Below are positions 11 to 21,230 of a stretch of 39,200 nt of DNA, piece after piece. Position 1 is the stretch's first letter. Every line of letters starts with the position of its first letter. The notes beneath the pieces were generated by a model, which did no database searches, was not told where the DNA came from, and saw nothing but the letters and a program-made list of their open reading frames with translations. The DNA is taken from positions 1 through 39,200 of the forward strand of contig CAVWSN010000002.1 of NCBI GenBank assembly GCA_963757815.1, read 5' to 3'. The position numbers and the translations under genes are program-made. Source of the DNA: an uncultured Thermoleophilaceae bacterium. Lineage in GTDB: Bacteria > Actinomycetota > Thermoleophilia > Solirubrobacterales > Thermoleophilaceae.

Positions 11-645
11 TCAAAGCCAGGACGCGTCCTCCAGATCGACTACCAAGGCCGAGCGGTCGCTCAAACCGCGGCGGCGCCAGTCGTGCGCGTAGGGCGCTTG
101 CGACAGGGCGCAGTCCTTCCACGAGCACGTGGTCGAGGCGCCACCCGCCGCGGTCGCCGGGAAACGTCCAGCTCACCTCGCGCTCGCCGTAGCCGTGTAG
201 TGCGCGGAAGGCGTCCACCCAGCCGGCTTGGCGCAGCCAGTGGACGAGCGCCTTCTCCGCGTGTACCAGCGCTCGCCGCGGGCCGGCCGCAAGCGGCCGG
301 CGCTGTTGCGCGCGAAGGTGAGCCCCCCGCCGTCGGGCGGCTCACGGCTGGACGTGTTCAGGTCTCCGCAGAGGAGACAGGCGGATCGCCGCCGACGAGA
401 TAGGCGGCCAGCACGCCGCGGTCAGCACGTCGAGCGGCCGGTCCCCCGGCGGGACGGTAGCGCGTCGTCGAGCGCCGTCTCTCATCCCGCGAATCCCATC
501 TCGCCGAGCGCCGCTCGCCACAGCGGCGCGCTCCGCCTGGTCACCTCCTGCAGAGCGATCAGTAAGTCCCGCCGCCAGGCCCTCGGCCTGCTCCCGCTGG
601 CGCGTGACCGCCCGGCCAGGTCCAGGTCACGAGACGCAACGCACC
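11..645 (-). pseudogene. Endonuclease/exonuclease/phosphatase (exodeoxyribonuclease III-like) gene, apparently disrupted by several frameshifts
   Basis: Minus-strand translation shows EEP hallmarks spread across different frames. N-terminal RLVTW, then DLLIALQEV (QETK-like motif), then WVDAFRALHG..WTFPGDRGGWRLDHVLV, then a C-terminal SDRSALVVDLE tail. Stop falls near 11-13. No single open frame spans it. Confidence 0.35.
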
Positions 646-1144
646 GTCACGTGTGGCGACGACCCCAATATTTGTGGTCGATCCTCCTTTCGTGACACGG
701 ACGCGGGTATCCGTTCTTACCGACGATCGGGCGATCCAGCAACGCGGCTCGAGTCGCCCTACCGTTACGCCCCCGCGGCGTCAGGTCGCGGGCCGGATTT
801 TCGCCTCGGATTGGGAGCCAGTAAAGGCGTTGAACGCGATGATCACGGCCATGCCAAGCACGGGCAGCAAGGCGCCCAGAAATGCGCCGACCGCGAGCCA
901 CCCCAGGGCGAGCTGAAAGCGTCTGCTGATGGCTGTCGCGCCGGCAGAGTCGAGGGCCTCGCTGAGCAGCCGTGACGGCAGGCGTACTTCACAAGCTTTG
1001 CCGGATGTCAACCAAAAGTGCGGCGGTTCAATGGCTTCTAGCGAATCGACGCGTTGCTGAAGCACGAGCTGATCGTCGAAGCCGGCGTCAACGATTCACG
1101 GCGGGCGCCCGCCCACGTCGCTGACCTTCAACGACGGCTCGGGT

Positions 1145-2098
1145 GTGGTTCTGTCCGCCGACCTCGGCGCCACGCATTCGCGCTTGGCGGTCAGCGACCT
1201 CGGCGGCGGACAGCTGGCGGAGATCGGGATCGACCTCGACATCGCGGAGGGACCGGACGCCGTCCTCGGCATCGTTCACGAGAAGTTCGGCCGCCTGCTC
1301 CAGGACGTCGGCCGCGGGGTCGACGAGGTACGTGGCGTCGGCCTGGGCGTCCCGGGGCCCGTGGCCTTCGACCGGGGCGAGCCGACCAGTCCGCCGATCA
1401 TGCCGGGCTGGGACGGCTTCTCCATCCCGGACTGGTTTGCCGCGCGCTACGGCGTGCCCGTGCTGGTGGACAACGACGTGAACATCATGGCTCAGGGCGA
1501 GCACTGGACGCACTGGCGCGAGTGCGGCCATCTCCTCTTCATCAAGGTGGGAACGGGCATCGGCTGCGGCATCGTGGCCGAGGGGCACATCCATCGTGGT
1601 GCCAAGGGCGCGGCGGGCGACATCGGCCACATTCGCCTCGCCGGGCACGATGTGGTGTGCCGCTGCGGCAACGTCGGCTGCCTCGAGGCGGTGTCGGGCG
1701 GTGCGGCGCTCGCGCGCCGGCTCTCCGAGCAGGGGATCGAGGCGCATACCAGCCGCGACGTGGTGCGCCTGGTCAAGGCCGGCGACGGGACCGCCACCCA
1801 ACTCGTCCGCGAGGCCGGCCGCAACCTCGGCGACGTCCTCGCGGGATGCGTGAACTTCTTCAACCCCGAGGTAATCGTTATCGGCGGCGACGTCAGCCAG
1901 GCGTCGCACCAGCTGCTCGCGGGCGTGCGCGAGGTGATCTTTCAGCGCTCGCTGCCACTGGCCACCGAGGAGCTGCGCGTCGTGCCGAGCCAGCTCGAGG
2001 ACCGCGCGGGAGTGATAGGAGCGGCGATCATGATGATCGAGCACGTGCTCTCACCGGCGGCGATCGACCGCGCGATCCGGCGCGGCGTCGCGGCCTAG
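1145..2098 (+). CDS. ROK-family protein (sugar kinase / NagC-type regulator)
   Basis: 317-aa intact ORF. N-terminal DLGATHSRLAV ATP-binding motif and central GIGCGIV..GAAGDIGH. ROK Cys/His zinc motif CRCGNVGCLE. GTG start. Confidence 0.8.
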   Translation: MVLSADLGATHSRLAVSDLGGGQLAEIGIDLDIAEGPDAVLGIVHEKFGRLLQDVGRGVDEVRGVGLGVPGPVAFDRGEPTSPPIMPGWDGFSIPDWFAARYGVPVLVDNDVNIMAQGEHWTHWRECGHLLFIKVGTGIGCGIVAEGHIHRGAKGAAGDIGHIRLAGHDVVCRCGNVGCLEAVSGGAALARRLSEQGIEAHTSRDVVRLVKAGDGTATQLVREAGRNLGDVLAGCVNFFNPEVIVIGGDVSQASHQLLAGVREVIFQRSLPLATEELRVVPSQLEDRAGVIGAAIMMIEHVLSPAAIDRAIRRGVAA

Positions 2099-2470: not shown

Positions 2471-5456
2471 TCAGTCGCGAGCTAAGGGACCTGGTCTAGG
2501 ACTCGTTAACCCGTCAGCCAGCCCGAGGCGGTGCGCGACTGCCGCCGCCTCCGTGCGCGAGCGGACGTCGAGCTTGGCCAGGATTCGCGACACGTGGACA
2601 CTCGCGGTCTTCTCCGCCATGAAGAGCTCGCGGCCGATCTCGCGGTTGGTGGCCCCGCGTGCCACGAGCGCCAGGACCTGACGCTCGCGCGCCGTCAGGC
2701 CGAAGGGGTCGTCCGGTTCCGCGGCCCGGGTGTGCGGCTCGGCGGGGACGTCCAGCCCCAAGCGGGCGCGACTCGCCAGGCCCTCGACCTCGTGGGTCAG
2801 CCATCCGGCGCCCAGCCGGCGCGCCGCCTCGAGCGCCGCGCGGGCGGCCTCCGCCGCCGCGTCACGATCGTCGCGAGCCAGGTGCGCCTCGGCCTCCCGC
2901 CAACGGGCCAGTGCCGCCGGGTAAGGCCGCTCGAGCGCTTCCCATGCCGCCGTCGCGGCCGCCCAAAGCGCGGGATCGTTTGCACCGGATGCGCGGGCCG
3001 CATCGGCCTCGGCTGTGGCGAGGTGCGCGCGCTGGATCGGCCCGCCGTTCTCGGCGGCTGCCCGAAGCTGCTCCAGGAACACGCGGAGCCGCTCGAGCGC
3101 CCGGGCAGCCTCCGGATCGTCGCCGACATCCCGCGCCCGCTGCGCGGCGTCGGCCTCCACCGCCACGCCGGCAGTGGCCAGGTTGCTGCCGAAACGGGCG
3201 AGGTCGTCGGTGCCGTGCTCGAGCCGGGCGAGCAGCCGTCTCGACGGTCTCGCGGGCATCGTCGAGATCGCCCTTACGGCGCAGCAGCTCGGCCTGTAGC
3301 CCGCCGATCGGTGCCAGGAACTGCGGCTCGGTCGAGTCCTCGAGCGTAGGGCGCATGCGCTCCAGCCACTCGGCGGCCTCGGCGTGTTCGCCTCTGCCGA
3401 TCGCCAGCTGGAGGCGGCCCAGCTCGATGACCAGCATCGTGCGGTCGTCGAAGCGGCGGCCCGGCTCCGGCAGCGCTCGGGCCGCCTCCTCCCAGTCGCC
3501 GAGGTCGAATGCGATTTCGCCCATCATGAAGTTGAGCCACTGGTGGGTATTCGGGCTGGTCGCGAGCTCTTCGGCACCCCAGCGCGCCGCCTCGATCGCG
3601 TCGCGGCTCCGGCCTGCGGCGTGCAGCGCATCGGCCAGGTTGACCGCCGCCGCGTCGATCTCCAGCGGGTCGCCGCGCTCGACAGCGATCTCGCCCGCCC
3701 GCCTGAGTGCGGCCGTCCCCTCTTCGATCTCGCCCAGCGGAATCAGCGCCGTCCCGAGCACGTTGAGCGCAACGCCGAGCGAGGCGGCGTCGCCGCATGC
3801 CTCCGCCACGCCCTGTGCCTCGCGCGCCTGCTCGACGGCCTCGCGCAGGCGCCCCTGGAACATCTGGCCTCGCGCCCACATGCCCAGGAGAGCGGCGCGC
3901 TCGGGCGAGTCCTCACCGGGAGGCAGCAGCCGGAGGCCGGCGCGCAGGGTGTCGAGCGCCTCGTCGGCGCGGTTGAGGTGCCACTGGAAGCGAGCCAGGC
4001 GCGCCATCATCCTCGCCGCCTTTCGCGGCTCGGCCGTCTCGTCGACGTCCTCGAGCGCGGCGCGCAGGAGCGCCTCCGCCCGGCTGCGCCGGCCCCCGAG
4101 GTTGTGGACCTCGGCCGCACGCCACATCAGGTCGCCGCGCTCGAGCCCGGCCACGGCCTCGGCGTTCGGAACCTGGTCCCACAGCTCGAGGGCCCGCTCG
4201 AGCAGCGCAGCCGCCTCGCTCGGGGCGCGTACCGCCTCTGCCGCGTCCGCCGCATGCATGCTCGCCGCGAGCGCAGCGGTGTGGTCGCCGGCCGCGAGGC
4301 GGTGGGAGGCGATCGCGGTGCTGATCGCGACGCTCGTGTCGCCGGCCGCCGACCGCCGCTCGAGGGCCTCGGCCAGCGCGCGGTGGAGCTCGATCCTCTC
4401 GCCCGGCAGCAGGTCGTCCTGCACCACTTCCCGCAGGAGCGCGTGACGGAACGCCAGCCTGCCGTCGGCGTCCACGACCGCGAGATGATTGGCGACCGCA
4501 GTGCGCAGGCACTCCTGGAGCTCGCGCGCGTCCAGCCCCGCGACCTCGGCCAGCAGGTCGTGGTCGAGCCGGCCACCGACCGCGAGCACGCGCAGGAGCC
4601 CCTGCGCGCGGTCAGGAAGCCGCTCGATCCGGAGCATCAGCGCGTCGCGCAGCGTCCGGGGGAGGGCGCCGCGGCCGTCGAGGCCCGCAGCCAAGAGCTC
4701 CTCCATGAACAGCGGGTTGCCCTCCGAGCGCGCGTAGAGGCGTTCCACCAGCTCGGCTGCCGGCGGGGCGCCGAGAATGTCGCCCAGCGCGCCGGCCAGC
4801 TCGTCACGCGTCAGCGGCGCGAGCTCGACGCGGCGCACGCGCGTATCGCGCTCAAGCTCGGCAAGCAGGGGGCGGAGCGGATGGCGGCGGTGCAACTCGT
4901 CGAGCCGGTACGAGGCCACGACCAGCACGCGTTCGTCGAAGAGGCTCCGCGCCAGGTAGGCGAGGAACGCCCGGGTCGAGCTGTCGGCCCAGTGGATGTC
5001 CTCCAGCACGAGCAGGACGGGGGCGCGCTCGCCCAGGTCGTGCAGCAGCGCGAGGACGGCCTCGAACAGTCGACCCTGGGCGCCTGTGTCGCGGCTGGGG
5101 GCGGGCCCCTCGCCCAACGCCGGCATGAGGGGAGTGAGCTCGGCGCGCGTGGCGGTGGGGAGGGCCTCGAGCGCTGCGTCACCGTCCCGCGCCAGCGGCC
5201 GAAGCGCCGTCAGGAGCGGAGCGTAGGGAAGCTCGCCGTCGCCGAGGTCGACGCACTCGCCGGAGAGCGTGTGGCCACCGCTTTCAGCGGCGCGCGCGAC
5301 AAGCTCGGCCACCAGCCGGGTCTTGCCCACCCCGGAGTCGCCTGCCACGAGCGCGAGGGAGGGGGCGCCCGATTCGGCGTCCGCGAACGCCGCCTCGAGC
5401 TCGGCCAACTCTGCCTCGCGACCGACCAAGCGGGAACTCGTGACCCGAGTGGCCAT
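2471..5456 (-). CDS. Large ATP-binding LuxR-family (LAL/MalT-like STAND) transcriptional regulator; one frame disruption near 3235
   Basis: N-terminal Walker A (AGDSGVGKT), DIHWAD Walker B-like motif, long TPR-like helical middle, C-terminal GerE/LuxR HTH ([43 protein letters not shown]). The 864-aa and 262-aa ORFs join across a 1-nt shift: ...ARETVETAA|RLLARLEHG... Confidence 0.75.
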
Positions 5457-5512
5457 GCCCCGCAGTATGGCGGCGGGCTACTTCCCAAAGAGCTCGCGGC
5501 CAGGGGGGACGC

Positions 5513-8500
5513 TCACGGCCCGGCCTCGACAAGGCTCGTCGGCACCTCCAGCACGCGGTCGATGGTCGCGCCCTGGTAGTCGGCCGGCAGGCGCTCATCC
5601 CGTCGCGCTCCGGCCCGTCACGCGGAGCACGGTGAGCTTGGCGGGCGTGATGTCCCCGTTGCCGTCGAAGCGGAAGGTGCCCAGGATGCCGTCTTTCACC
5701 GCGACTCGCCCGCAGCTCCCGGAGCACCGCGGCCCGCGTCCCGTCGGAGCGGGCGATCGCCGTCAGGACCACCTCCGCGGCCTGCGCGGCATGGAGCACA
5801 TAACGCTCATCGGCAGCCGATCCGAGGTCGGCCGCGATGCGCCTGGCGGCAGGTGTGAGCCCGGGCCCGCCGGCCAGCAGATCCGGCGTCATCGCGTACA
5901 GGCCGCGGGCGGCGCGGCCGGCTCTCTCGAGCACGTCGGGGATCGGGGAGAGCCCGCTGGTCGCCATGATCGGCACGCGCGGGCCGAGGCGGGCGCGCAG
6001 GGCCTTCAGCACGCGGTCGCCGCCGCCGTCGTCCACGAAGGCGCCGAGCATGACGCCCTGCGCGTCCGACCGCGCGACCTCGTTCGCGAGCGCCTCGAAG
6101 CTCTTCGCCCCCGGGTCGAAAGCCTTCGCGCCGGCGATCGTCAGGCCGACCCGTTCGGCCGTCCGGGGGACGGAGTCGGTCAACAGCGTATCCCACAAGA
6201 CCCCGTCGTGGATCAGATAGACGCTCTTGAGGCCGAGCTGCGTTGCGAGCATGGCCAGCGCCGCACCCTCGAGGTCGTCGGTGGGTGACAGCCTGGCGTA
6301 GTTGCGCTCGCCGGTCGGGTAGAAGATCTCCGGCGCGTCCGGCGCGAAGCCTTGCTTCGTCAGATGGGGATGCGAGTTCGAGGGACTGACCATCGCCAAT
6401 GGGCCACCCGGCGCCCGGTTGAGAGTCGGGATCTCGACCTCCGCGCAACCCGAGCTGTACGGGCCGATCACCGCCACGAGCTTCTCCGCGCGCGCGTAGG
6501 CGTTCGCGTTGGCGGCGCACCTGCGGAGCTCGAAGCTGCCGCTCTGTGACGTGGAGTCGTCACACGACGCGTAGCCGACCGAGTGTTTGCCTGCCCTGAA
6601 GCCGTGCCGCTCGATCACCGACCGGATCGCGTCGGCCATCGCGCGCGGCCGCCGTACTGTCGGGGCCCTGGAGCGGGAGGTCGGAGGCCACCAGCAGGTC
6701 CGGGCTGCCGCCGCCCGCGAGCGACCTCGCCGCAGGCGAAGGCGGGAAGGGCGCCCGCCTCCGCCGCCCCCGCGACGCTCACCCACGCGGATCCCTCGCC
6801 TGCCGCGAGCGCCCTGGGAGTTCCGACCGCCATCCTCGCCGTGACAGCGTTCGTGCGCGGATCGATCCGCGAGACCGTGCCGTCGATGTAGTTGGCAGCC
6901 CAGACCGCCCCTTCTCCGAACGCGATGTAGCCAACGCCCACCCCGACCTCGATCGGCTTGGGTATGGGTCGCGGCCCCGGCTCGATCCGCCAAACGAGGC
7001 CCTCGTCCTCCGCCGTTGCCCAGACGGAACCGGCGCCGACCGCGATCGCGGGCAGTGCGTTGGCGCCGATCGGGATCGTCTGGGCGACGCGGTTCGTGCG
7101 CGGGTCGATGCGCTTGATCGCAGGCCGCTCCCAGGGTACGAACCACACGCCCTCCTCGCCCGCGGCCACGGTGGCGGCGGAGACGTCGATAGTCGCGACG
7201 AGCTCGCCCGGTCTCGGGATCGATGCGGGAGATGCTGGCGTCCGGGTTGCGCGCCCAGACGGCGCCGGCTCCGACGGCGATCTGCGGGTACCCCGTGTTC
7301 GGAGCGCCGGTGATGCCGCCGCCGCTCGTGTCGGGCAGCTTCAGGGTTCGCGTCACTTTCTCAGTACCCGGGTCGACCCGGGAGATGCTGACCGTGGTGG
7401 TGAAGTAGCGGCCGCCGCCGTTCCCGACCCAGAGCGCTCCCGCACCGACGGCCAGCTGGCTGGGCGTCCCGGGCGTCTTGACGCTTCCGGTGATCTCCTT
7501 CGTCTGCGGGTCGATGCGCGAGATCGCGTCCTCCCCGTCCTGCAGGGCCCAGACGGCGCCCTCCCCCGCGGCCACGTTCCCCGGCAGCGCCTCGGACTCT
7601 GTGAGCGACGCGACCTTGCCCGTCGCGGGATCGATCGCGGCGACCCCCGTCCCGAGCGGCTCAGTCCGAGCATCCTCAGCAGTCGTGAGCGCCACGATGG
7701 CCGCGGCGATCGCCGCCCCGAGCATCAGCAGGCCGGCTGCGAGGACGGCGCGGCCACGCCGGCGAAGCCCGCGGCGGCCCGAGCTGCCGGCGCGGCGGCC
7801 CGGGGAGGCGCGAGTCCAAGCGCCTCGGCCGCCGCGTCGATGAGCTCGCCGCAGCTTCGTAGCGGTCCTCGCGGTCTTTGGCGAGCGCCTTGCGCAGCAC
7901 CGGATCGAGCCGCGGGTAGCCCGCGCAGCGGGGCCGGCTGCTCCTGCATGTGCGCCCACAGTGATCTCGGCCTCGGTCGTGCGCCGGAACGGCGGCGCGC
8001 CGGCCAGGCACTCGTAGAGCACGCAGCCCAGCGCGTAGACGTCGGTGCGGCCGTCGACCGGGTCGCCGCGGATCTGCTCGGGCGCCAGGTAGTCGAGCGT
8101 GCCGACGACCCGGCCGGTGTCGGTCGAGTCGCCGCCGACCTGCTTGGTGATGCCGAAGTCCGTCAGGTAGGCGTGGCCGTCCTCGTCGAGCAGCACGTTG
8201 GCGGGCTTCACGTCGCGATGCACGAGCGCGCGCCGGTGCGCGGCGTCGAGCGCGCCCGGCGACCTGGGCCAGCACCGCCAGCGTCCGCTGCGGCGCAGCT
8301 TCCCCTCGCGCTCGAGGATCGCTCTGCAGGTCGCTGCCCTCGACGAACCGCATCGCCAGGTAGAGCTGGCCGTCGTGCTCGCCCGCCTCGTAGATCGGGA
8401 TCACGTTCGGGTGGTCAAGCGACGCCGCCAGGCGCGGCTCGCGCAGGAAGCGGGCCCGGAAGCGCTCGTCCTCGGCCAGCTCCGGCGCGACCAGCTTCAG

Positions 8501-8612
8501 CGCCACCGGCCGCTCCAGCGACAGGTCCGTCGCGCGGTAGACGACACCCATCCCGCCGCGGCCGACCAGCGACTCCACCCGATAGCCGGCAAAGATCGTG
8601 CCCGGTCTTCAT
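5513..8612 (-). pseudogene. Receptor Ser/Thr protein kinase copy A (STPK, TM helix, beta-propeller repeats, LivK-type PBP1 domain); at least 6 frame disruptions
   Basis: Kinase motifs [37 protein letters not shown] helix [21 protein letters not shown]. Repeated G.GAVWV.N...SRIDP.T blades. Leu/Ile/Val-binding-protein-like domain ([17 protein letters not shown]...IMATSGL). Pieces lie in at least 5 different ORF frames. ATG at 8612 overlaps the stop of copy B (TGACCATG). Confidence 0.7.
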
Positions 8613-8614
8613 GG

Positions 8615-11600
8615 TCAGCCCGACAGGCTCTTCGGCACGGTCATGACGCGGTCGACGACGGATCCGCGGAACCACTCGAACACACGAGCATCGGGCGGCG
8701 CGTGGCCACTCACGCGGAAGATCGCGATCTGGGCGGGAGTGATGTCCCCGTGGCGGTCGAGCCGGAAGTCGCCCAGGACGCCGTCCTCCACCTCGACGGT
8801 GCGAAGCTCCTGGAGCACCGATGCTCGCGTCCCGTCGGAGCGTGCGATCGCGTCCAGCACGACCTCGGTCGCCTGCGCCGCCGTCAGAACACCCTGGACC
8901 GGGTCGTCAAACGTCCCGAAGTCGCGCGCAAAGCTCCGCCCCGCGGGGCTCCCCTCGCGGGCGCTGGGTGGGACGTCCAGGGAGCTCATGTAGAGACCGT
9001 GCGCGGCCGGCCCGGCCAGCGTCGAGCAGGTCGGGCACGTCGCCGAGCGGCTCGGTGGCCATGATCACCGCACTCTGGCCCAGGCGGGCGCGCAGCGCCT
9101 TCACCAGCCGAGCCGCCACCTCCGCGCCGGCAAAGCCACCCATGAAGACGCCCTGCGCGCCGGAGCGAGCGACCCTCTGCGCGAGCGCGTCGTAGCTCTT
9201 CGCCTCGGGATCGAAGGCCTCGGAGCCGGCGACTCCGACACCCAGGCGACCGGCGGCCCTGCTGAACGGGTCCGTGTAAGTGATCCTCGGGCTCCCTCCG
9301 ATCCCATCCTGCTCGTGGAGCAGGAAGACGCGCCTCAGCCCGAGCTCCTTGGCGAGCATGGCCTGCGCCACGCCCTGGAGGTCCTCGCGAGGGACGACCC
9401 GGGCGAAGTTGCGCACGCCCGTCGGGTAGTAGATGCCTGGCTCTCTTATGCCGGGGCCCCCGACCTCGTCGAGCCGGCCGCCGCGGGTGAGCCCCGAGTG
9501 GGTCGCGATCGGGCTGACGATCGCCAGTGGGCCGCCAGGGGCCCGGTTCAGAATCGGGATCTGAACCGAGCCGCAGTACGAGGAATAGGGCCCGATCACG
9601 GCCACGAGCTGCTCCGCGCGGGCGAAGGCGGACGCGTTTGCCGCGCACTTGCGAAACTCGAAGCCGCCGGTCTGCGGGGTGGAGGGGTCGCAGGACTGGT
9701 AGCCGACCGTGTAGTCGCCGGCCCTGAATCCGCGCCGCTCGAGGGCGAAGCGGATCGCGCCCTCGATCGCTCGTGCGTCGCCGCTGACGGGACCCTGCAG
9801 CGGGAAGTCCGAGGCGATCAGGACGTCCGGGGTCCCACCGCCCGGAGGCGACCTCGCCGCAGCCCGCTGCGGTCAGGGCTCCCTCGGTCGTCCCGCCCGC
9901 CACGCTTACCCAGGCCGCGCCGGCGCCGGCGGCCAGAGCCTGTGGGGTTCCGATCGACGTCCTCGAGCTCACGTTGTTCGTGCGCGGATCGATCCGGGAG
10001 ACCGCGCCGTCGACGTAGTTGCCCGTCCAGGCCGCCCCCTCGCCGAAGGCGACGAGGCTCACGCCCTTCCCGACGTCGATCGACCTCGTGATCGGCCGCG
10101 GCCCGGGCTCGATCCGCCAGACGAGGCCCTCGCCCTCCGCGGCCGCCCACACCGAGCCGGCCCCGACTGCCACCCCCAGCAGGCCGGTCGCGGCGATCGG
10201 AATCGTCTCCGCCACACGATTCGTGCGCGGGTCGATCCGTCGGACCGCCGGCGGATCTCGTCAAGCGCGAGGAACCAGACTCCCTCCTCGGCCGGCGGCG
10301 ATCGTCCACGCGCCGAACTGGGATCTCGATCGTCGCGACGAGCCGTCCGCTCTCGGGATCGATGCGCGACACGCTCCCGTCGGGGTTGGCCGCCCAGACC
10401 GCACCGGCGCCCACGGCGATCCGGGGCGCGCCCGCCACCGGGTACACGCCCTCGTCGCCTCGGAGCCGCACGGTTCGCGTGACCCGGCCCGAGTCGGGAT
10501 CGAGCCGGGAGACGCTGACCGTGGCGTTGCTGAAATCTCCGCCGCCCGCGTTCCCGATCCATAGCGCACCCTCGCCGGCCGCGAGCTCACTCGGCACGCC
10601 GGGGGTGTCGAACGTCTCCGTGACCTCCTTCGTCTCCGGGTCGATGCGAGAGACGGTCCGCTCCTCGTTGTTCAGCGCCCAGACCGCGCCCTCGCCCACC
10701 GCGACGTTGCCCGGCGGCGTTCGCGACTCGGTGAAGGACGTAACGTCACCGTCCGCGGGGTCGATCGCGGCAACTCCGTTACCGATCGGCTCGGTTGGGC
10801 TGTCGTCACCGCCGGTGAGGGCGACGACCGCCAGCCGCGATGACTGCGGCCAGCAGGAACAGGCCGGCGGCCAGCAGGCGCGCGGCCTCGGCGCCGTAGT
10901 CTGGCTGGTGCGAGCGGGCGCCGGGGTGCCTGTAGTCCGAGCGCCGGCGCGGCGGCGTCGATCAGCTCGGCGCAGGTCTTGAAGCGGTCTTCGCGGTCTT
11001 TGGCGAGCGCCTTGCGGAGCACCGGGTCGAGCCGCGGGTAGCCGCGCAGCGGGGCCGGTTGCTCCTGCATGTGCGCCCACAGGATCTCGGCCTCGGTCGT
11101 GCGCCGGAACGGCGGCGCGCCGGCCAGGCACTCGTAGAGAACGCAGCCCAGCGCGTAGACGTCGGTGCGGCCGTCGACGGGGTCGCCGCGGATCTGCTCG
11201 GGCGCCAGGTAGTCGAGCGTGCCGACGACACGGCCGGTGTCGGTCGAGTCGCCACCGACCTGCTTGGTGATGCCGAAGTCGGTCAGGTAGGCGTGGCCGT
11301 CCTCGTCGAGCAGCACGTTGGCGGGCTTCACGTCGCGATGCACGAGCGCGCGCCGGTGCGCGGCGTCGAGCGCCCCGGCGACCTGGGCCAGCACCGCCAG
11401 CGCCCGCTGCGGCGGCAGCTTCCCCTCGCGCTCCAGGATCGTTCGCAGGTCGCTGCCCTCGACGAACCGCATCGCCAGGTAGAGCTGGCCGTCGTGCTCG
11501 CCCGCCTCGTAGATCGGGATCACGTTGCGGGTGGTCGAGCGACGCCGCCAGCCGCGGCTCGCGCAGGAAGCGGTCCCGGAAGCGCTCGTCCTCGGCCAGC

Positions 11601-11743
11601 TCCGGGGCGACCAGCTTGAGCGCCACCGGCCGCTCCAGCGACAGGTCCGTCGCGCGGTAGACGACACCCATCCCGCCGCGCCCGACCAGCTCCTCGACGC
11701 GATAGCCGGCAAAGATCATGCCGCGGCTCAAAGCTGCCTTCAT
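8615..11743 (-). pseudogene. Receptor Ser/Thr protein kinase copy B (same architecture as copy A); about 7 frame disruptions
   Basis: N-terminal [29 protein letters not shown]. Full kinase domain in the 346-aa [20 protein letters not shown]. Propeller blades in the 641- and 409-aa ORFs. PBP1 domain in the 232- and 124-aa ORFs, ending ...VMTVPKSLSG*. Example indel: ccgcaacgtg here versus ccgaacgtg in copy A. Confidence 0.7.
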
Positions 11744-11846: not shown

Positions 11847-12417
11847 TCAGTGAGCCGCCACCCCAGCGCTCCGGCCGCGCCTGCGCCCGGTCAGCATCAG
11901 GGCCGATCCGGCCGCGATGCTCAGCAGCGCCAGCATGCCGGCCGCGCCGATGCCTGCGTCGGCCCAGTCGAAGCCGCCGGACGGCCCGCGGACCTCGACG
12001 ACCGGGGAAGCCGCCGTGATCTCGCCGATGATGCGGTTCACCATCTGCTGCACCTCGGGCGACTCGACAAACCTGCGCTCCGAGTCCGTGTAAATGCCCG
12101 GCGCGCGAATGCGTGACCGGCGGCAGGTCCCGGGCGGCGTCGGCCGCATCGGGCGAGCCGTAGCCCCGGTTCAGCGCATACGGACTCCGGTCGGCCTCGT
12201 GCAGGCCGCGCTGCTCGGCCGCATCGACGGTGTCGGGCGAGCGCAGGTCCTGGTACTCGTCGGCGGCCGAGGCCGCAATCGAGGACGGGGGCGGAGCAAC
12301 GTCGCTGTTGGCGGCGGCCCCACCGGAGCGCAGGTCCTCGTACGGGGCGGCGGACGCCGGCACGGCGCACACAGCCAGGAGGGCCGCGGTGGTGAGGATG
12401 TGGCTACGTCGAAGCAT
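11847..12417 (-). CDS. Secreted repeat-containing hypothetical protein with C-terminal TM anchor (one apparent frameshift near 12130)
   Basis: Signal peptide [25 protein letters not shown]. Acidic repeats YEDLRS../EYQDLRS../..DAADAARDL. The C-terminal part (other frame) ends with hydrophobic helix [18 protein letters not shown] followed by RRRGR. Confidence 0.4.
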
Positions 12418-12529: not shown

Positions 12530-14128
12530 CTAGCGCGCGTGTCCGGTCAGCGACCAGCTGAAGGGCGTGCGGGTGTCGGCCGGCGCAAGGCCGTCCGGTC
12601 GCGTCCCACGCCTCACTAATACCGTCGGCGCCGGCGGGGACTTCGCTAGCTCCCCCCGCACCCGGCCGAGCCCCTCCTCGCGCCAGCGCTCCGACAGCCC
12701 CACCACGAGCAGGGCGGCTCCCTCGGCGAGTGCGGCCACGCCCTCCCGGCCCGGGCTCGCGAGCAGCGGCTCGGCGACGATGCCTGCCGTGCGCTGGACG
12801 ATCAGTGAGGCGTCGGCGAGCAGCCGGCTCGCGTCGCGTGCCTCCGCGCCGCGGTCGGCGGCGGAGCCGATGAGCCGCAGCGGGGCGTCCGTGGCGCGGG
12901 CAACCCAAGCGCCGAGCCTGAGCGCCGCCCAGTCGTGCGCCCCTGCGCCGAAGGGCACCACCACAGGCCCCTCACCCAGCGAGCCGCCGGCCTCTGCAAG
13001 CAGGGCCACGTCGCAGGGTGCCTGTTCGAGGACCACGCGCGCGTCGCCGTCCAGCGGCGACGGGCCGGCATCCATGAGGAGCAGATCGACGTTCTCCTGG
13101 CCGGTGAGCCGGACGATGTCCTCGCCGCGCCGAGGCGAGGAGAACGCCGCGGTCCTGGCTACGAGTCCGGCGGCCAGCAACCGGTCGCGGCGTTCGGCAA
13201 GAGCCGCAGTGGCGGCAGCAAGCTCCGCCGGCGGGACGACGCCAGCGACGATCAGCTCGTGGGGGGACTCCGAGGCCGCCAGCGGCTCGGCGAGCCGAAG
13301 GAGCGGGTCGAGCCCGGGCAGCGCCCGCGGCACGATCAAGAGCGCGCGTTCCGCCACCGCTGCCTCGGGCGCCGCCGGCTCCCGCGGCGCGCCGTCCGCA
13401 AGGTCGAGCGTCGGGTCCTGACGCAGGATCGCCTGCTCGAGCCGCTTCAGCTCCTCGCTGGGCTCGAGGCCGAGCTCTTCCGAGAGCTCGCGCCGAGCCA
13501 CCTGGTAGGCGTCGAGGGCCTCGGCCTGGCGAGCCGAGCGGTAGAGCGCGAGCATGAGCTGGAAGCGCAGCCGCTCCCGCAGCGGGTTCCGGACGATCAG
13601 CGCCTCGAGCTCGCCGACCAGCTCGGCGTGGCGCCCGACGGCCAGGTCGGCATCGATCCGCTGCTCGAGCACGGCTATCCTGAGCTCCTCGAGCCTGGCG
13701 ATCTCGGGCTGGGCGAACGGCTCGTACGCCAGGTCCGCGAGCGGCGACCCGCGCCAGAGTGCAAGCGCGTCGCGAAGCTTGCGCGCGGCCCGTTGTGGAT
13801 CGGTCCGCCGCGCCTCGTCCGCCAGCTGCTCGAAGCGGGCCAGGTCGAGCTCGGACGGCTCGACATGGAGCATGTAGCCGGGCGCGTGCGTGGCGAGCCG
13901 GCTGGTGCCGATCTGCTTGCGCAGCCGTGAGACGTAGACCTGAATGCTCTTGGCGCACGTTGCCGGCGGCGTGGCCCCCCACAGCTGGTCGATCAGGCGG
14001 TCGGTCGAGACGAGCTCGTTCGACTGGAGCAGAAGGATCGCCAGGAGCGAACGCTGCTTGACCCCGCCGAGAGCAAGAGGCCGATCACGCTCGACCACCT
14101 CCAGTGGGCCAAGGAGCCGAAAGTCCAT
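12530..14128 (-). CDS. SARP (AfsR/DnrI-type) transcriptional regulator with C-terminal tandem Usp-like domains
   Basis: ATG at 14128. N-terminal OmpR-type winged helix MDFRLLGPLEV..LLAILLL. BTAD (LDLARFEQLADEAR...LMLALYRSARQAEAL). C-terminal half shows two Usp-like alpha/beta units (ALLIVPRALPG...; GPVVVPFGAGAHDWAALRLGAWVARATDAPLRLIG). Confidence 0.75.
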   Translation of the reverse strand: MDFRLLGPLEVVERDRPLALGGVKQRSLLAILLLQSNELVSTDRLIDQLWGATPPATCAKSIQVYVSRLRKQIGTSRLATHAPGYMLHVEPSELDLARFEQLADEARRTDPQRAARKLRDALALWRGSPLADLAYEPFAQPEIARLEELRIAVLEQRIDADLAVGRHAELVGELEALIVRNPLRERLRFQLMLALYRSARQAEALDAYQVARRELSEELGLEPSEELKRLEQAILRQDPTLDLADGAPREPAAPEAAVAERALLIVPRALPGLDPLLRLAEPLAASESPHELIVAGVVPPAELAAATAALAERRDRLLAAGLVARTAAFSSPRRGEDIVRLTGQENVDLLLMDAGPSPLDGDARVVLEQAPCDVALLAEAGGSLGEGPVVVPFGAGAHDWAALRLGAWVARATDAPLRLIGSAADRGAEARDASRLLADASLIVQRTAGIVAEPLLASPGREGVAALAEGAALLVVGLSERWREEGLGRVRGELAKSPPAPTVLVRRGTRPDGLAPADTRTPFSWSLTGHAR

Positions 14129-14230
14129 ACCCGAGTCGTTGCGACCGTAGCACGGGTCCCCGATTAACCCGGCAGCCCCGCTCGGTCCTAAGAGGAGAGC
14201 CCACAAGCCGGCGGAGGAAGAGGAGAAACG

Positions 14231-14614
14231 ATGAGCTTGAGCGGATACGAGGTCAGGACATCGATTGCGGTCTCCGACATCGCCCGGGCGGCCGAGTTCT
14301 ACGAAGGGAAGCTCGGCCTCGCCGCGGCGGAGAGTCAGCCCGACGAGAGCCGGATCTACGCGTGCGGGGGCGACACCTCGCTGCACGTCTACGCCTCTCC
14401 CGCCCACGCCGGGAAGGCGACCGCGACCCTGGCCACCTGGTACGTGGCCGACCTCGAGGAGGTGGTCGACGAGCTCCGCTCGCGCGGCGTGACGTTCGAG
14501 CGCTACGACGACCCCTCGCTGGGGGCCGACGAGAAGGGGATCCACGAGCTCGACAACGGTCGGGTCGCCTGGTTCAAGGATCCCGACGGCAACACCTTCG
14601 CGCTAGAACAGTAG
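14231..14614 (+). CDS. VOC/glyoxalase-bleomycin resistance family protein
   Basis: 127-aa ORF with typical VOC fold sequence (SIAVSDIARAAEFYEGKLG...WFKDPDGNTFAL). Confidence 0.8.
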   Translation: MSLSGYEVRTSIAVSDIARAAEFYEGKLGLAAAESQPDESRIYACGGDTSLHVYASPAHAGKATATLATWYVADLEEVVDELRSRGVTFERYDDPSLGADEKGIHELDNGRVAWFKDPDGNTFALEQ

Positions 14615-14631
14615 GGCCGCCCAAGCGAACC

Positions 14632-15348
14632 ATGCCGAGATCGATCGCGCACCGGGAGGACGAGACGCTCGTCGCGGCGCTCTGCCGCGGCGATGCGGAT
14701 GCTTTCGCGATTCTCGTCGACCGCCACAGCCCCGCGATGATTCGCGTTGCGATGGCCTACGTGCCGACCCGGGCGGCCGCCGAGGAGGCCGTGCAGGAGA
14801 CCTGGATCGGCGTGATGCGCGGGATCGACGGATTCGAGGGCCGCGCCTCGCTCAAGACGTGGATCTTTCGCATCCTCACCAACGTGGCTATGCGAAGCGG
14901 CGCCCGCGAGCGGCGAAGCATGCCCTTCTCGGCGCTGGCCGAAGCGGAGAACACCGGCGAGCCGTCGGTCGACCCCGATCGCTTCCTCCCGGCCGACCAC
15001 GAGCTCTTCCCCGGTCACTGGGCGATCATGCCCGTGCGCTGGCCCACGCCAGAGGAGGGGCTGCTGGCCGGCGAGACGCGCGAGGTGATCACCGCCGCGA
15101 TCGCCGAACTGCCGCCGGCGCAGCGGACCGTGATCGCGCTGCGGGACGTCGAGGGTTGGAGCTCTGAGGAGGTCTGCGAGGCACTCGAGATCTCGGCCGG
15201 GAACCAGCGGATCCTGCTCCACCGCGCGCGCAGCCGGGTCCGGAACGCGATCGAGAGCTACTACGGCGCGGTCGAGGAGATCGACTACGACGCCGTAACG
15301 GCGGAGCTGATGGGCGACACTGCGAAGAAGAGATCGGATTCCGAGTGA
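14632..15348 (+). CDS. ECF-type RNA polymerase sigma-70 family factor
   Basis: Region 2 (FAILVDRHSPAMIRVAMAY..QETWIGVMRGIDGFEG) and region 4 (LPPAQRTVIALRDVEGWSSEEVCEALEIS). Starts 17 nt after the VOC gene. Confidence 0.85.
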   Translation: MPRSIAHREDETLVAALCRGDADAFAILVDRHSPAMIRVAMAYVPTRAAAEEAVQETWIGVMRGIDGFEGRASLKTWIFRILTNVAMRSGARERRSMPFSALAEAENTGEPSVDPDRFLPADHELFPGHWAIMPVRWPTPEEGLLAGETREVITAAIAELPPAQRTVIALRDVEGWSSEEVCEALEISAGNQRILLHRARSRVRNAIESYYGAVEEIDYDAVTAELMGDTAKKRSDSE

Positions 15349-15611
15349 TGGCCGACCACGTCCATAACGAGTCTGAGGAGCTCGCCTGCGTCCACGTAGT
15401 CGAGCTCGTGACCGACTACCTCGAGGGCGCGCTGCCCGAAGCCGACGCGCGGCGACTGGAGCGTCACCTCGGCACGTGCCCGGGCTGCGGCGAATACCTC
15501 GAGCAGCTGCGCGCGGTCTCCGGCTCGCTCAGGGGCCTCACCGAAGAGTCGTTCCCGGCCGAGATCCGCGACGGCCTGATCGCCGACTTCCGCGGCTTCC
15601 GCCACCGCTGA
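15348..15611 (+). CDS. Zinc-binding anti-sigma factor (ZAS family)
   Basis: HxxxCxxC motif (HLGTCPGCGEY) plus upstream Cys. Start ATG overlaps the sigma-factor stop (TGATG). Confidence 0.75.
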   Translation: MADHVHNESEELACVHVVELVTDYLEGALPEADARRLERHLGTCPGCGEYLEQLRAVSGSLRGLTEESFPAEIRDGLIADFRGFRHR

Positions 15612-15654
15612 GCCGCTCCGTAACGCCCGCCGCTCCCGCTGTAACTGAGAGGGC

Positions 15655-17229
15655 ATGACGCGGAGAAACGCTCACGCCACCCGACGGGAATGGATCGGCC
15701 TCGCGGTGATCGCGCTGCCGTGCATGGTCTACGCGATGGACCTCACGGTCCTGACGCTCGCGGTGCCCTCGCTAAGCGCCGACTTGAGCCCGAGCAGCAC
15801 CGAGCTGCTCTGGATCGTCGACATCTACGGCTTCCTCGTCGCCGGCTTCCTGATCACGATGGGCACGCTCGGCGACCGGATCGGCCGCCGCAGGCTCCTC
15901 CTGATCGGCGCCGCCGCGTTTGCCGTCGCCTCGGTGGTCGCGGCGTTCTCGTCGAGCCCCACGATGCTGATCGCCTCGCGCGCGCTGCTCGGAATCGCGG
16001 GGGCGACGGTGGCGCCTTCCACGCTGTCGCTGATCCGCAACATGTTCGAGGACCCGCGCGAGCGCACCACGGCTATCGGGATCTGGATCACCAGCTTCTC
16101 GACCGGCGCGGCAATCGGCCCGCTGGTCGGCGGCGTGCTCCTCGAGAGCTTTCACTGGGGGTCGGTCTTTCTCTTGGCGGTGCCGGTCATGGTGATGCTG
16201 CTGGCGATCGGCCGCAGGTTCCTCCCTGAGTACAAGGACCCGAACCCGGGCCGGCTCGATCTGGTGAGCGCGGCGCTCTCGCTCGTGGCCGTCCTGGCCG
16301 TGATCTATGGCGTCAAGGCCATAGCCAAGGACGGAATAGGACTGGCGAGCGTGGCGCCGGTCCTGGCCGGGCTCGCGGTCGGCTCCGCGTTCGTCGAGCG
16401 CCAGCGCCGGCTGGCCGAGCCGATGATCGACCTGGGGCTGTTCCGCCGGCGGGCCTTCAGCCTGGCGCTGAGCGCCAACACCCTCGGGTTTGCGGTCCTG
16501 TTCGGACTCGAGGTCTTCGTCGCCCAGTACTTCCAGCTCGTGCTCGGCTACTCGCCGCTCGAGGCGGGGCTGTTGAGCCTGCCCGGGGCGGCCGCGTTCG
16601 TGGTCGGCTCGCAGCTCACGCCGCCGCTCGCGGCACGTGCCCGGCCCGCGGTCGTGATGCTCGGCGGGCTCCTCGTCGCAACAGTCGGCGTATCGCTGCT
16701 CACGCAGGTTGGGGTGGCCGATGGCCCGGGTCTCATCGTGGCCGCCGTAGTGATCCTCTCGCTCGGCCTCGCGCCCCTGTTCACGCTGGCCGCCGACATC
16801 GCGGTCGGAAGCGCTCCCCCCGAGCGAGCCGGCGCCGCCTCGGGCATCTCAGAGACGAGCTCCGAGCTGGGCGGCGCGCTCGGGCTTGCGATTCTCGGCA
16901 CGGTCGGCACGGCGGTGTACCGCGGCCACACCGCCGACGCCTTCCCGGCCGCGGTGCCGGCCGACGCGGCATCGACGGCGAGCGACACGCTGGGTGGCGC
17001 GGTCGAGGTCGCCGACCGGCTGCCGCAGCTGCTCGCCGCTGACGTGCTCGAGCCCGCCCGCGACGCGTTCACACAAGGGCTTCAGGTTGCGGCCACCGTG
17101 AGCGGTGTCCTCGTGGTCGCGGCCGCCCTCATGGTCGCGAGGCTCCTGCGGAGCGGCGACAAGCCGCAAGAGTCAGAAGAGCGAGCGGCTCCGTCGGTCG
17201 CGCTCGCGACCTCGCAGCCATGCGCATAG
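15655..17229 (+). CDS. MFS transporter, DHA2 (EmrB/QacA) drug:H+ antiporter family, 14 TMS
   Basis: 524-aa hydrophobic ORF. MFS motif GTLGDRIGRRRLL. About 14 predicted helices. Confidence 0.85.
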   Translation: MTRRNAHATRREWIGLAVIALPCMVYAMDLTVLTLAVPSLSADLSPSSTELLWIVDIYGFLVAGFLITMGTLGDRIGRRRLLLIGAAAFAVASVVAAFSSSPTMLIASRALLGIAGATVAPSTLSLIRNMFEDPRERTTAIGIWITSFSTGAAIGPLVGGVLLESFHWGSVFLLAVPVMVMLLAIGRRFLPEYKDPNPGRLDLVSAALSLVAVLAVIYGVKAIAKDGIGLASVAPVLAGLAVGSAFVERQRRLAEPMIDLGLFRRRAFSLALSANTLGFAVLFGLEVFVAQYFQLVLGYSPLEAGLLSLPGAAAFVVGSQLTPPLAARARPAVVMLGGLLVATVGVSLLTQVGVADGPGLIVAAVVILSLGLAPLFTLAADIAVGSAPPERAGAASGISETSSELGGALGLAILGTVGTAVYRGHTADAFPAAVPADAASTASDTLGGAVEVADRLPQLLAADVLEPARDAFTQGLQVAATVSGVLVVAAALMVARLLRSGDKPQESEERAAPSVALATSQPCA

Positions 17230-17239
17230 AGGCCGCACG

Positions 17240-17638
17240 TCACTCGCGGCGAGCGATCTGCGGGCCCACGCGGACGACTTCGGGGGTCTCCTGCTGAGCC
17301 CAGTCAGGGGGATCGACGCCCTCGCTCTTGGCGGCCATGCGGGCGAAGTAGCGCTCGAAGCCGGCAGGGGTGCACACGATCAGCGCCCGAGCAGGGGCGC
17401 CGCTGTGGTTGGCGTAGGTGTGCGGGACGTCGCGCGGCGCGAAGGCGAGCTCGCCCGCCTTGCGCGTGAACACCTCGTCCCCGAGCTGGAACGTCAGCTC
17501 CCCTTCGATCACGTAGAACGCCTCATCGAAGCCGTGGTGGTGAAGCGGTGGGCCGTCGAACCCCGGGCCCGAGCTGACCTCGATCGCCGAGACCACGGCG
17601 TCGCTCTCCTCGCTACGCAGTAGGACCTTGGGTGGCAT
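17240..17638 (-). CDS. Cupin-domain protein
   Basis: 132 aa. Cupin motifs (PLHHHGFDEAFYVIEGEL...; two-His motif). ATG at 17638. Confidence 0.7.
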   Translation of the reverse strand: MPPKVLLRSEESDAVVSAIEVSSGPGFDGPPLHHHGFDEAFYVIEGELTFQLGDEVFTRKAGELAFAPRDVPHTYANHSGAPARALIVCTPAGFERYFARMAAKSEGVDPPDWAQQETPEVVRVGPQIARRE

Positions 17639-17658
17639 GGAACGTGCTCCTTTCGCGG

Positions 17659-18099
17659 TTAGGCCTGTACGGCTTGGACGACGGCGGCCAGCTGCTCGGT
17701 CAGGACCCGCATGACCTCCTCGCGGGGCAGGCCGCGCTCGCGCATCGCGTCGAGTAGCGACTCGGCGAAGGCCACGTAGGCCTCGAGCGTCGCGCGGGCC
17801 AGCGGCGAGGGGTCGCGCGTGCCCAGGTTGTTCTCGGCCACCATGTCGACCACGAGCCGGGTGTAGCGCTCTGACGTGGCGCGCGCCTTGGCGTCGCCGG
17901 AGCTCGCCGCCGCGCGGCGGGCGGCCCATGCGGCCGTCGGTCGCGCCGCGTGGTCGACGAGCCGCGCGAAGTTCGCCGCCACGCGCTGGTCGAGCGGAAC
18001 GTCCGGGTCGACCGACCAGTCCTCGGTCAGCTCAACAGCTACGCGCAGGCGTCTTCGCCGCTCCCCGGGCTGCGCAGCGCCGACGTGCGCACGCAGCAT
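17659..18099 (-). CDS. Hypothetical protein
   Basis: 146-aa ORF, 21 nt upstream of the cupin gene on the same strand. No confident family. True start uncertain, and it overlaps the alternative extension of the plus-strand 18202 gene. Confidence 0.3.
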   Translation of the reverse strand: MLRAHVGAAQPGERRRRLRVAVELTEDWSVDPDVPLDQRVAANFARLVDHAARPTAAWAARRAAASSGDAKARATSERYTRLVVDMVAENNLGTRDPSPLARATLEAYVAFAESLLDAMRERGLPREEVMRVLTEQLAAVVQAVQA

Positions 18100-18201
18100 C
18101 TCGACCTCCCGGGGACGCCGATCCAGACTCAGTTCTCAAGTCGCTACCGCGACGGTGGCAGGGCGGCCTGGGGCTCGCTGGTCGACTTTCAGGATCGCCA
18201 C

Positions 18202-20889: not shown

Positions 20890-21230
20890 GCAGACAGCTC
20901 CTCGAGAGCGTCGGGGTTGACGTAGTAGTAGGCCCACAGGCCGCGCCGCTCGGAGTCGACGATCCCGGCCTCGCGCAGCTTCTTGAGATGGTGCGAGAGC
21001 GTCGGCTGGGAGATGTCGAACAGCGGGACCAGCTCGCAGACGCAGACCTTGCCTGCGTGCTTGCGCAGCACGTCGACGAGCTGCAGCCGGACCGGGTCGC
21101 CGATCGCCTTGGCCACTTCGGCCATGCGGAGCGCCTGCGCGCGCTCGACGTCGGGGTAGACGACGGGCTCGCAGCAGGGCTCGCCGGCGGGCCGCTTCTG
21201 CTTGGGGGCCAGCTCCAGATCGACAGCCAT
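20877..21230 (-). CDS. arsR: ArsR/SmtB-family metalloregulator
   Basis: 117 aa. HTH (LRMAEVAKAIGDPVRLQLVDVL) and CVC metal-binding motif (KVCVCELV). Its 3' end overlaps the arsM start (ATGGCTGAGCTGA). Confidence 0.8.
   Translation of the reverse strand: MAVDLELAPKQKRPAGEPCCEPVVYPDVERAQALRMAEVAKAIGDPVRLQLVDVLRKHAGKVCVCELVPLFDISQPTLSHHLKKLREAGIVDSERRGLWAYYYVNPDALEELSAWLS

Follow-up and report, generated by a model that had tools for sequence, protein, structure and literature searches.

Receptor Ser/Thr kinases of bacteria have been described with a variety of sensor domains and regulatory partners. In Mycobacterium tuberculosis PknD, a Hanks kinase, a single transmembrane (TM) helix and an extracytoplasmic beta-propeller are joined in one protein, with the propeller being of the six-bladed NHL type and nothing following it. 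GlnH/GlnX/PknG was described as the only characterised Ser/Thr protein kinase (STPK) system to be stimulated by a solute-binding protein (SBP) (PMC8050422), and there a separate SBP signals via the membrane protein GlnX to a soluble kinase. A 2005 bioinformatic study (PMC1262709) listed, for Nostoc and S. coelicolor, STPKs in which the kinase is joined to an ANF_receptor/LivK-type or SBP domain. With regard to output, the genes of Streptomyces AfsK and M. tuberculosis PknH adjoin those of the SARP regulators AfsR and EmbR, and AfsR is a substrate of AfsK (PMC10936776).

The locus examined here lies in a 39,200-nucleotide stretch of DNA (the window) from an uncultured Thermoleophilaceae bacterium. 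It is a cassette on one strand that encodes a SARP–tandem-USP (universal-stress-protein) regulator, a small exported protein with a membrane anchor, and two receptor kinases, which are paralogues with a single TM pass each. The kinases share the kinase–TM–propeller order of PknD, and their kinase fold is closest to the M. tuberculosis Pkn kinases, but the propeller is predicted to be seven-bladed and of YVTN/YncE type, and is followed by a type-I periplasmic binding-protein (PBP1) domain. As in GlnH/GlnX/PknG, an extracytoplasmic solute-binding-protein fold would feed Ser/Thr phosphorylation; the difference is that the binding protein is of another class and is fused to the kinase. The Nostoc and S. 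coelicolor fusions, which are likewise uncharacterised, also combine a kinase with a periplasmic-binding-protein ectodomain, but in them no propeller separates the binding domain from the TM helix, and they belong to other lineages. Adjacency of kinase and SARP genes is shared with AfsK/AfsR and PknH/EmbR. However, AfsR has NOD and TPR regions and EmbR an FHA domain, whereas the SARP regulator here has a tandem USP module, with neither an FHA nor a NOD domain found by domain search and fold comparison. The sensors differ as well, being PQQ repeats in AfsK, a fold of its own in PknH, and a propeller–PBP1 ectodomain in the present kinases.

None of the two kinase genes and the LAL-type regulator gene downstream is a single uninterrupted ORF, and their frames were corrected by homologue-guided frameshift-aware alignment. 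(A GC3-based Viterbi frame corrector was dropped; it recovered the shifts, plus false ones such as two in the LAL gene and several in the intact DyP-encapsulin ORF.) After repair, the minus strand reads kinase B (11743..8615, ~1040 aa after 8 single-base corrections), kinase A (8612..5513, ~1028 aa after 14) and the LAL regulator (5456..2471, ~990 aa), an arrangement already given by the sequence-only reading, which had anticipated the need for repair. Kinase B runs from its ATG at 11743 to a TGA at 8617-8615, and two bases, CC, separate it from the ATG of kinase A at 8612 (junction TGACCATG, 8610..8617, minus strand). Kinase A ends in a TGA at 5515-5513, and the LAL ATG at 5456 follows after a 56-nt gap, with the stop at 2471. 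Both spacings had been claimed and both are read in the sequence; by gene calls, the tandem kinases of two related loci (L001 and L002) are likewise 2 nt apart. A promoter scan returned no promoters, and a terminator scan gave one terminator-like site, on the wrong strand, so neither was informative.

The kinase domains span approximately 11743-10906 in B and 8612-7812 in A, and in each protein a basic stretch and then one TM helix follow (approximately 10885-10815 and 7753-7687). Pfam matched the frame-corrected proteins to Pkinase (PF00069) at 6e-51 and 4e-46 (173.7 and 158.1 bits, cutoff 31.7), and Foldseek matched the kinase fold to M. tuberculosis PknB/E/A/F/I. Across 50 homologues there is no variation in the catalytic Lys (K39), the HRD motif (H131-R132-D133), the catalytic Asn (N138), DFG (D151-F152-G153) or APE (A176-P177-E178), and both window kinases carry STDTG, with the activation-loop Ser/Thr, and YLAPEQ. 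The PknB-like domain, on the cytoplasmic side in both kinases, is catalytically complete. The proposal of a Hanks-type kinase with a single TM helix in both genes is thus borne out by Pfam, the AF2 model and Foldseek.

The ectodomain consists of a propeller (approximately 10790-9880 in B; seven-bladed, 7648-6773, in A) and a PBP1 domain (approximately 9830-8618 and 6697-5545). An AF2 model of the receptor kinase (pLDDT 83) places a TM helix at residues 286-308, 27 strands at 321-612, consistent with seven blades, and an alpha/beta domain at 637-1019. Pfam detected a DUF6923 propeller repeat in both frame-corrected kinases (2e-13 and 2e-14) and no NHL repeat; the closest propeller matches were YncE and the YVTN propeller 1L0Q, and the NCBIfam beta_rpt_yvtn repeat was also matched. 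The propeller is therefore modelled as a seven-bladed YVTN/YncE type. A PknD-like propeller had been proposed for these proteins; a propeller is indeed present, though not the six-bladed NHL type, and since both blade number and repeat family differ, the resemblance to PknD is functional only. Peripla_BP_6 was found in both kinases (5e-17 and 1e-17; 63 and 65 bits, cutoff 31.7), and the two-lobed fold matched LivK 3TD9, 3HUT, LivJ 4GNR and LIVBP 1Z15 (TMt 0.70-0.81, Foldseek), which supports a type-I binding protein of predicted LivJ/LivK fold, as had been suggested. Domain searches and structure prediction of the ectodomain, two of the checks that had been proposed, agree on both modules. Four ectodomain Cys are invariant in the 50 homologues, the PBP1 domain having invariant cysteines.

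The conserved partner of these kinases, from its recurrence in related loci, is the SARP–tandem-USP regulator encoded upstream, which the sequence-only reading had not included, and not the LAL regulator downstream. The SARP gene (12530..14128, minus strand, 532 aa) is an uninterrupted ORF whose product has an OmpR-type winged helix and a BTAD, followed by the C-terminal tandem USP module. Of 31 related loci, 24 have it just upstream of the kinases and on their strand, and the window is one of these. The SARP fold matches AfsR, with 46% identity between the two SARP domains, and EmbR, on which it superposes; the tandem USP is an addition. Often between the SARP gene and the kinase, and present in many loci by tblastn, is the gene for the small exported protein (11847..12417, minus strand, ~190 aa, frame broken near 12100), which has a signal peptide, a conserved PGPYTDSER...GGFDWGDAGIGA motif, a C-terminal TM helix and an Arg-rich tail, and no significant Pfam match. 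In L001, L002 and the short-read orthologue L003, one unbroken ORF encodes it.

The kinases are members of a family from soil Thermoleophilia that is large and unstudied. Databases contain at least 8000 full-length relatives with the same three modules, often in tandem arrays of two or three; the PBP piece forms 434 clusters at 50% identity (E<=1e-30), and the SARP family is similarly expanded (at least 7688 proteins). Our literature search found nothing specific on the propeller plus PBP1 kinase architecture or on Thermoleophilia kinases. The view that this sensor combination is uncharacterised stands, although the combination is not rare. Standalone lipoprotein SBPs of the same PBP subfamily exist. 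Matches represented by ~700-aa sequences, which would have been kinase-less propeller–PBP proteins, were rejected as fragments because their sequences start within the propeller and have neither an initial Met nor a signal peptide. Within the window, kinases B and A are 93% identical in their kinase domains and 56-66% in their ectodomains, with synonymous divergence of 0.15 and 0.7-0.8, respectively. On these values A and B are not recent duplicates, and the pattern suggests concerted evolution of the tandem kinase domains. The closest relative in the genome collection, L040, has ~90% nucleotide identity, and no identical locus was found there.

We lean towards a model in which intact genes, their frame breaks being artefact, encode ligand-gated receptor kinases that act on the SARP regulator. 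Beyond the domain architecture, we infer each mechanistic step. A small ligand would close the cleft of the binding protein, and the propeller may provide a second binding or docking surface. Ligand binding would change the pairing of the ectodomains, upon which the kinase domains would autophosphorylate on the conserved S-T-D-T activation loop. The activated kinases would then phosphorylate cytoplasmic targets, the likeliest being the co-conserved SARP–USP regulator, by comparison with AfsK/AfsR and PknH/EmbR. Kinases A and B probably sense different ligands with one common output. The pairing of kinases and SARP regulator as enzyme and substrate is put forward with caution, as adjacency alone is no proof and the SARP protein has neither an FHA domain nor a recognised phospho-acceptor site. 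More tentatively, Thermoleophilia may hold thousands of such one-to-one cassettes, each with a SARP–USP regulator, a small protein and one to three propeller–PBP1 kinases and each behaving like a two-component system, in which gene conversion would homogenise the kinase domain while the sensors diversify to soil metabolites and report to one dedicated transcription factor.

The nature of the signal admits a reading that we consider a serious, if less favoured, possibility, namely that the ectodomain is not an amino-acid sensor. The PBP1 domain would then recognise other ligands, such as organic or aromatic acids, amides or cell-wall fragments, or sensing or docking would be led by the propeller. 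All of the best PBP fold matches are Leu/Ile/Val-type binding proteins, which speaks for amino acids; yet identity to LivJ/LivK is only 14-23%, and at the sequence level the PDB holds no counterpart of the domain. Peripla_BP_6 ligands are diverse, GABA and aromatic acids being among the further compounds that members bind (PMC8050422), so the family does not fix the ligand class of the PBP1 domain. YncE, which matches the propeller best, does not sense small molecules, and the small exported protein is co-conserved. In the propeller-led version, the docking partner could be, for instance, a polymer or the small anchored protein of the same locus.

The frame breaks bear on whether the genes function at all. 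Alignment to homologues gave seven +1 shifts and one -1 shift in kinase B, twelve +1 and two -1 in kinase A, and one +1 in the LAL gene at ~3237. It is improbable, in our estimation, that the kinases, the small protein and the LAL regulator are true decaying pseudogenes of a signalling locus being lost in the lineage. Gene decay in bacteria is naturally deletion-biased, with indels of varied size, whereas the frame-breaking indels here are all of 1 nt, and the kinases have 19 insertions among their 22. Once the frames are repaired no in-frame stops remain, and kinase B aligns with its uninterrupted L003 orthologue at 910 of 1041 identical residues, also with 0 stops. The dN/dS of the kinases (0.23-0.28; 0.23 for B) is no higher than that of an intact control pair (0.34), and among related loci shifted copies occur in 0 of 9 from short-read but 11 of 21 from long-read MAG assemblies. 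Decay would better account for the distribution of the breaks, whose density is ~27 times higher in the kinases (22 in 6.2 kb) than elsewhere (~4 in ~30 kb), many neighbouring genes being intact, and for the state of the nearest relative, L040, where one kinase is shattered by 17 shifts and the second is lost, with an IS481-like transposase in its place. In L040, too, the excess is specific to the kinase, as its SARP and LAL genes are intact; against inherited decay, perhaps only about one shift site is common to L040 and the window. The LDH, DUF222-HNH, small-protein and LAL genes of the window carry scattered shifts as well, and no common sequence motif was found at the break sites. Because stops are absent, dN/dS is no higher than in the intact pair, and the breaks follow the sequencing type, consensus error is the likelier cause. 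The 23 single-base breaks are most probably long-read consensus errors, and the genes are therefore probably intact in the organism. Their concentration in the kinases is unexplained by a uniform error process; a mixture of strains or paralogues is one candidate idea.

The downstream gene resembles MalT-like LAL regulators in having an AAA_16 domain with a Walker A motif (GDSGVGKT, read in the sequence), a TPR-like region and a C-terminal LuxR/GerE HTH (Pfam: AAA_16 7.5e-33, TPR_12, GerE 7.9e-18), and its identification as an AAA/TPR/LuxR protein holds. It is 89.8% identical in nucleotides to the uninterrupted gene of its 987-aa L040 orthologue (dN/dS 0.19). M. tuberculosis PknK is a kinase fused to a MalT-like region. 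That the kinases and LAL form one operon, with LAL as the dedicated phospho-substrate, is very doubtful: the shared strand, the 56-nt gap without a predicted terminator, the neighbourhood kept in L040, the STPK-to-STAND precedent of AfsK, which phosphorylates the NOD/TPR part of AfsR, the similarity of the LAL ATPase region to the AAA portion of TIGR03903 (1.3e-45), a family of kinase/cyclase fusions, and the PknK fusion are all consistent with it, but the search of related loci placed an orthologous LAL after the kinases in only 1 of 31, L040, and there beyond a 5-kb insert with the IS481-like transposase, while the closest intact kinase A orthologues (71-85% identity) have unrelated genes next to them, namely those for an AP endonuclease, a gltX-like product and an HDOD-HD-GerE protein. 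The kinase-LAL operon of the sequence-only reading accordingly lacks support. LAL lacks conserved linkage to the propeller–PBP1 kinase family and is a lineage-specific, probably recent neighbour that would be at most an additional target.

To our knowledge, the activating signals of bacterial receptor Ser/Thr kinases are mostly unknown. In the present family the kinase and a Venus-flytrap binding domain are directly joined in one protein, so that the sensor's ligand can be screened for and the activation question becomes experimentally tractable. As the window probably shows, long-read MAG consensus can break up exactly such multi-copy genes, which annotation pipelines would then overlook or list as pseudogenes. 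With the conserved SARP–USP neighbour comes a kinase-to-transcription-factor pairing that can be tested, in a class of soil bacteria that is abundant and little studied, and the near-identical kinase domains and divergent sensors of the tandem copies suggest how new inputs are brought to one output.

The window has a G+C content of ~72%, and an ORF search of it returned no single long ORF across any of the three genes that the sequence-only reading had described as PknD-like receptor kinases and a large ATP-binding LuxR-family (LAL) regulator, probably in one signalling operon. The third-position GC frame plot showed a minus-strand coding frame that shifts repeatedly within 11743..2471. Frame repair gave three minus-strand proteins: kinase B (ATG 11743 to TGA 8617-8615), kinase A (ATG 8612 to TGA 5515-5513), which starts two bases after the kinase B stop, and the LAL regulator (ATG 5456 to 2471), 56 nt past the end of kinase A. 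Both spacings had been read from the sequence beforehand and are exact. In Pfam searches, repaired kinases B and A matched Pkinase (6e-51 and 4e-46), the DUF6923 propeller repeat (2e-13 and 2e-14) and Peripla_BP_6 (5e-17 and 1e-17), all above curated cutoffs, as were the LAL matches to AAA_16 (7.5e-33) and GerE (7.9e-18); the LAL TPR match (TPR_12, 1.5e-06) fell under its cutoff.

Elsewhere in the window, an intact 604-aa ORF (27396..29210, minus) encodes, as one polypeptide for cargo and shell rather than two genes, a complete DyP-type peroxidase (Dyp_perox_N plus Dyp_perox_C) fused to an encapsulin shell (complete Linocin_M18 domain, 2e-77). A DUF4118–GAF–HisKA_3 histidine kinase (34113..36383, plus) is convergent with a cNMP-binding domain fused to a pyridine nucleotide-disulfide oxidoreductase (36181..37887, minus), their 3' ends overlapping by ~200 bp as listed. 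Two putative genes without a Pfam match, 17950..19551 (plus, 533 aa) and 20161..21861 (minus, 566 aa), are overlapped by alternative ORFs and may be real genes or high-G+C frame artefacts.

An AlphaFold model (mean pLDDT 83) was built with a 50-sequence alignment on P0002, an intact homologue 88% identical to kinase A. It comprises a kinase domain (residues 1-265), a disordered basic linker, a TM helix (286-308), 27 beta-strands (321-612), consistent with seven four-stranded blades, and an alpha/beta two-lobe domain (637-1019). In Foldseek, the kinase fold matched M. tuberculosis PknB, PknE, PknA, PknF and PknI, and the C-terminal domain matched LivK (3TD9), 3HUT, LivJ (4GNR) and E. coli LIVBP (1Z15) with target TM-scores of 0.70-0.81. 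Pfam, model and Foldseek thus support the proposed order of kinase, TM helix, propeller and LivK-type periplasmic-binding-protein (PBP) domain. The noted resemblance to PknD does not extend to propeller type: PknD has a six-bladed NHL propeller, and that of kinases A and B is of the YVTN/YncE kind, with about seven blades in the model and 1L0Q as the sole sequence-level PDB match of the ectodomain. Across 50 homologues, the catalytic motifs, the S-T-D-T activation loop and four ectodomain cysteines are invariant or nearly so, and an extracytoplasmic ectodomain fits the conserved cysteines.

Searching with kinase A gave at least 8000 full-length relatives (~1030 aa) that share its domain set, with a top identity of 85% among the matches listed. 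In genomes, whole-protein matches were confined to Thermoleophilaceae, Solirubrobacteraceae and unclassified Actinomycetota MAGs, while in other phyla the match was confined to the kinase domain. Scanned without a profile, the PBP piece of kinase A gave 434 clusters at 50% identity (E<=1e-30), many of them of 1000-1060 aa. Free lipoprotein solute-binding proteins (SBPs) occur in the same PBP subfamily, which suggests a transport-SBP origin for the sensor domain. Relatives with two modules, in which a kinase is joined either to an NHL propeller or to an ANF_receptor or SBP domain, have been on record since 2005 (PMC1262709), and a 2021 review names GlnH/GlnX/PknG as the sole characterised SBP-stimulated Ser/Thr kinase (PMC8050422). 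The propeller–PBP1 combination had been put forward as uncharacterised; a literature search indeed found no description of the fusion, nor of its pairing with the SARP–USP regulators considered below, and NCBIfam holds no dedicated model for the fusion, but with at least 8000 proteins it is not rare.

Tandem arrays of two or three such kinases with 2-nt junctions are common, and A and B are most similar in nucleotide sequence to the second and third genes of these arrays. Their kinase domains (8612..7812 and 11743..10906, minus) share 93% amino acid and 94% DNA identity (dS 0.15), as against 66% amino acid identity in the propeller (dS 0.77) and 56% in the PBP domain (dS 0.71). The kinase domains thus appear to be homogenised while the sensors diverge, and the low kinase-domain dS against an ectodomain dS of 0.7-0.8 makes gene conversion limited to the kinase-domain part the probable process.

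The gene neighbourhood was examined by tblastn of 63 loci with window proteins as probes. An orthologous LAL gene follows the kinases only in L040, the closest relative (syntenic, ~90% nt identity to the window), which retains one kinase only and carries, at the position of kinase A, a 5-kb insert between kinase and LAL (13133..18074) that includes an ORF (13910..14953, starting MKLHGNAALTPKQR) resembling an IS481-family transposase. The nearest intact kinase A orthologues are flanked by an AP endonuclease, a gltX-like gene and an HDOD-HD-GerE gene instead of LAL, and a conserved kinase–LAL linkage is not borne out. The gene that does recur encodes a 532-aa regulator. Of the 31 family loci with sufficient flank, 24 have it on the kinase strand, no more than 3.5 kb upstream, and two more have it directly downstream. 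In the window it is an intact ORF (14128..12530, minus) with Trans_reg_C and BTAD domains and, in its C-terminal half (12530..13340), a tandem universal-stress-protein (USP) module where characterised SARPs have FHA or NOD-TPR modules. This layout occurs in at least 7688 database proteins, and the SARP–USP family is as expanded as the kinases. Between SARP gene and kinase there is frequently a small, C-terminally anchored exported protein, which recurs beside these kinases and matched no Pfam family (window 11847..12417, minus; ~553..1150 in the short-read assembly L003). It carries a signal peptide, a conserved GGFDWGDAGIGA motif and, after the motif, a hydrophobic helix with an RRRR tail, an arrangement reminiscent of C-terminal signals for sorting or anchoring.

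Domain order, implied topology, catalytic completeness, a conserved SARP–USP pairing and nearly identical kinase domains that bear divergent sensors are established here, and a signalling route can be proposed. Ligand binding would close the PBP cleft and change ectodomain association, a response to which the propeller may contribute, and the kinase domains would then autophosphorylate and become active. Activation by autophosphorylation is established for PknB and PknD-type kinases. On the precedent of AfsK/AfsR (PMC10936776) and PknH/EmbR, the signal would reach the SARP–USP regulator, whose USP module has a nucleotide-binding fold and could plausibly serve in regulation or as the acceptor. 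The LAL regulator, once proposed as a plausible phospho-substrate, may be an extra target in the window's lineage: AfsR offers a precedent for STPK phosphorylation of a STAND module, but conservation lends a dedicated kinase–LAL pair no support. Since Peripla_BP_6 ligands include GABA and aromatic acids as well as amino acids, among others (PMC8050422), the domain family does not fix the ligand of either kinase.

Frame breaks were mapped by frameshift-aware dynamic programming of intact close homologues against window DNA. Kinase A (907/1025 identical to P0002) required 12 '+1' and 2 '-1' corrections, and kinase B (910/1041 identical to the L003 short-read orthologue) 7 '+1' and 1 '-1', with no in-frame stops in either; LAL, at 89.8% nt identity to the intact 987-aa L040 orthologue, has a single surplus base near 3237. 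In the DNA alignments, all differences that break the frame were of one base, mostly an additional G or C. The frame is also broken in the small gene upstream of kinase B (near 12100), in an LDH/MDH gene (37884..~38860, minus; near 38680) and in a DUF222/HNH gene (minus; near 25600, between DUF222 at 25643..26650 and the HNH piece at 25048..25551). The remaining genes are mostly unbroken, and their domain matches are full-length (ROK, SARP, sigma factor, MFS, DyP-encapsulin, CorA, S15 peptidase, GAF histidine kinase, LigD primase-polymerase, TetR and others). The window thus has a low background of 1-nt indels (~4 in ~30 kb), over which the two kinases, with 22 in 6.2 kb, form a hot spot of ~27-fold higher density.

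This striking clustering, which recurs in L040, where the kinase needs 17 corrections and SARP, MFS and LAL are clean, would fit genuine pseudogenisation of the kinase locus. Such decay is nevertheless unlikely, and a technical origin is favoured, because the kinase indels are all 1 nt, 19 of the 22 are insertions and none is accompanied by a nonsense codon; because dN/dS against intact orthologues (0.275 for A, 0.231 for B) is not above that of an intact orthologue pair (0.338); because, among related loci, 0 of 9 short-read kinases needed correction, whereas long-read 'MFD' MAG contigs had 11 such kinases among 21; and because like lesions occur in other window genes. The shifts in the 'MFD' kinases are again chiefly '+1', with multiple such corrections in L011, L027, L028, L031, L036, L038, L039 and L041, and these long-read assemblies may have a systematic consensus problem for this kinase family. 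We infer that multi-copy, strain-variable kinase genes may have given mixed read pile-ups that consensus polishing resolved badly, a difficulty to which the 94% identical kinase-domain repeat of the tandem pair would add. The window copy is one among thousands of family members and is damaged in the assembly, and the propeller–PBP1 kinase is a form of bacterial receptor Ser/Thr kinase that is abundant in databases and unstudied.
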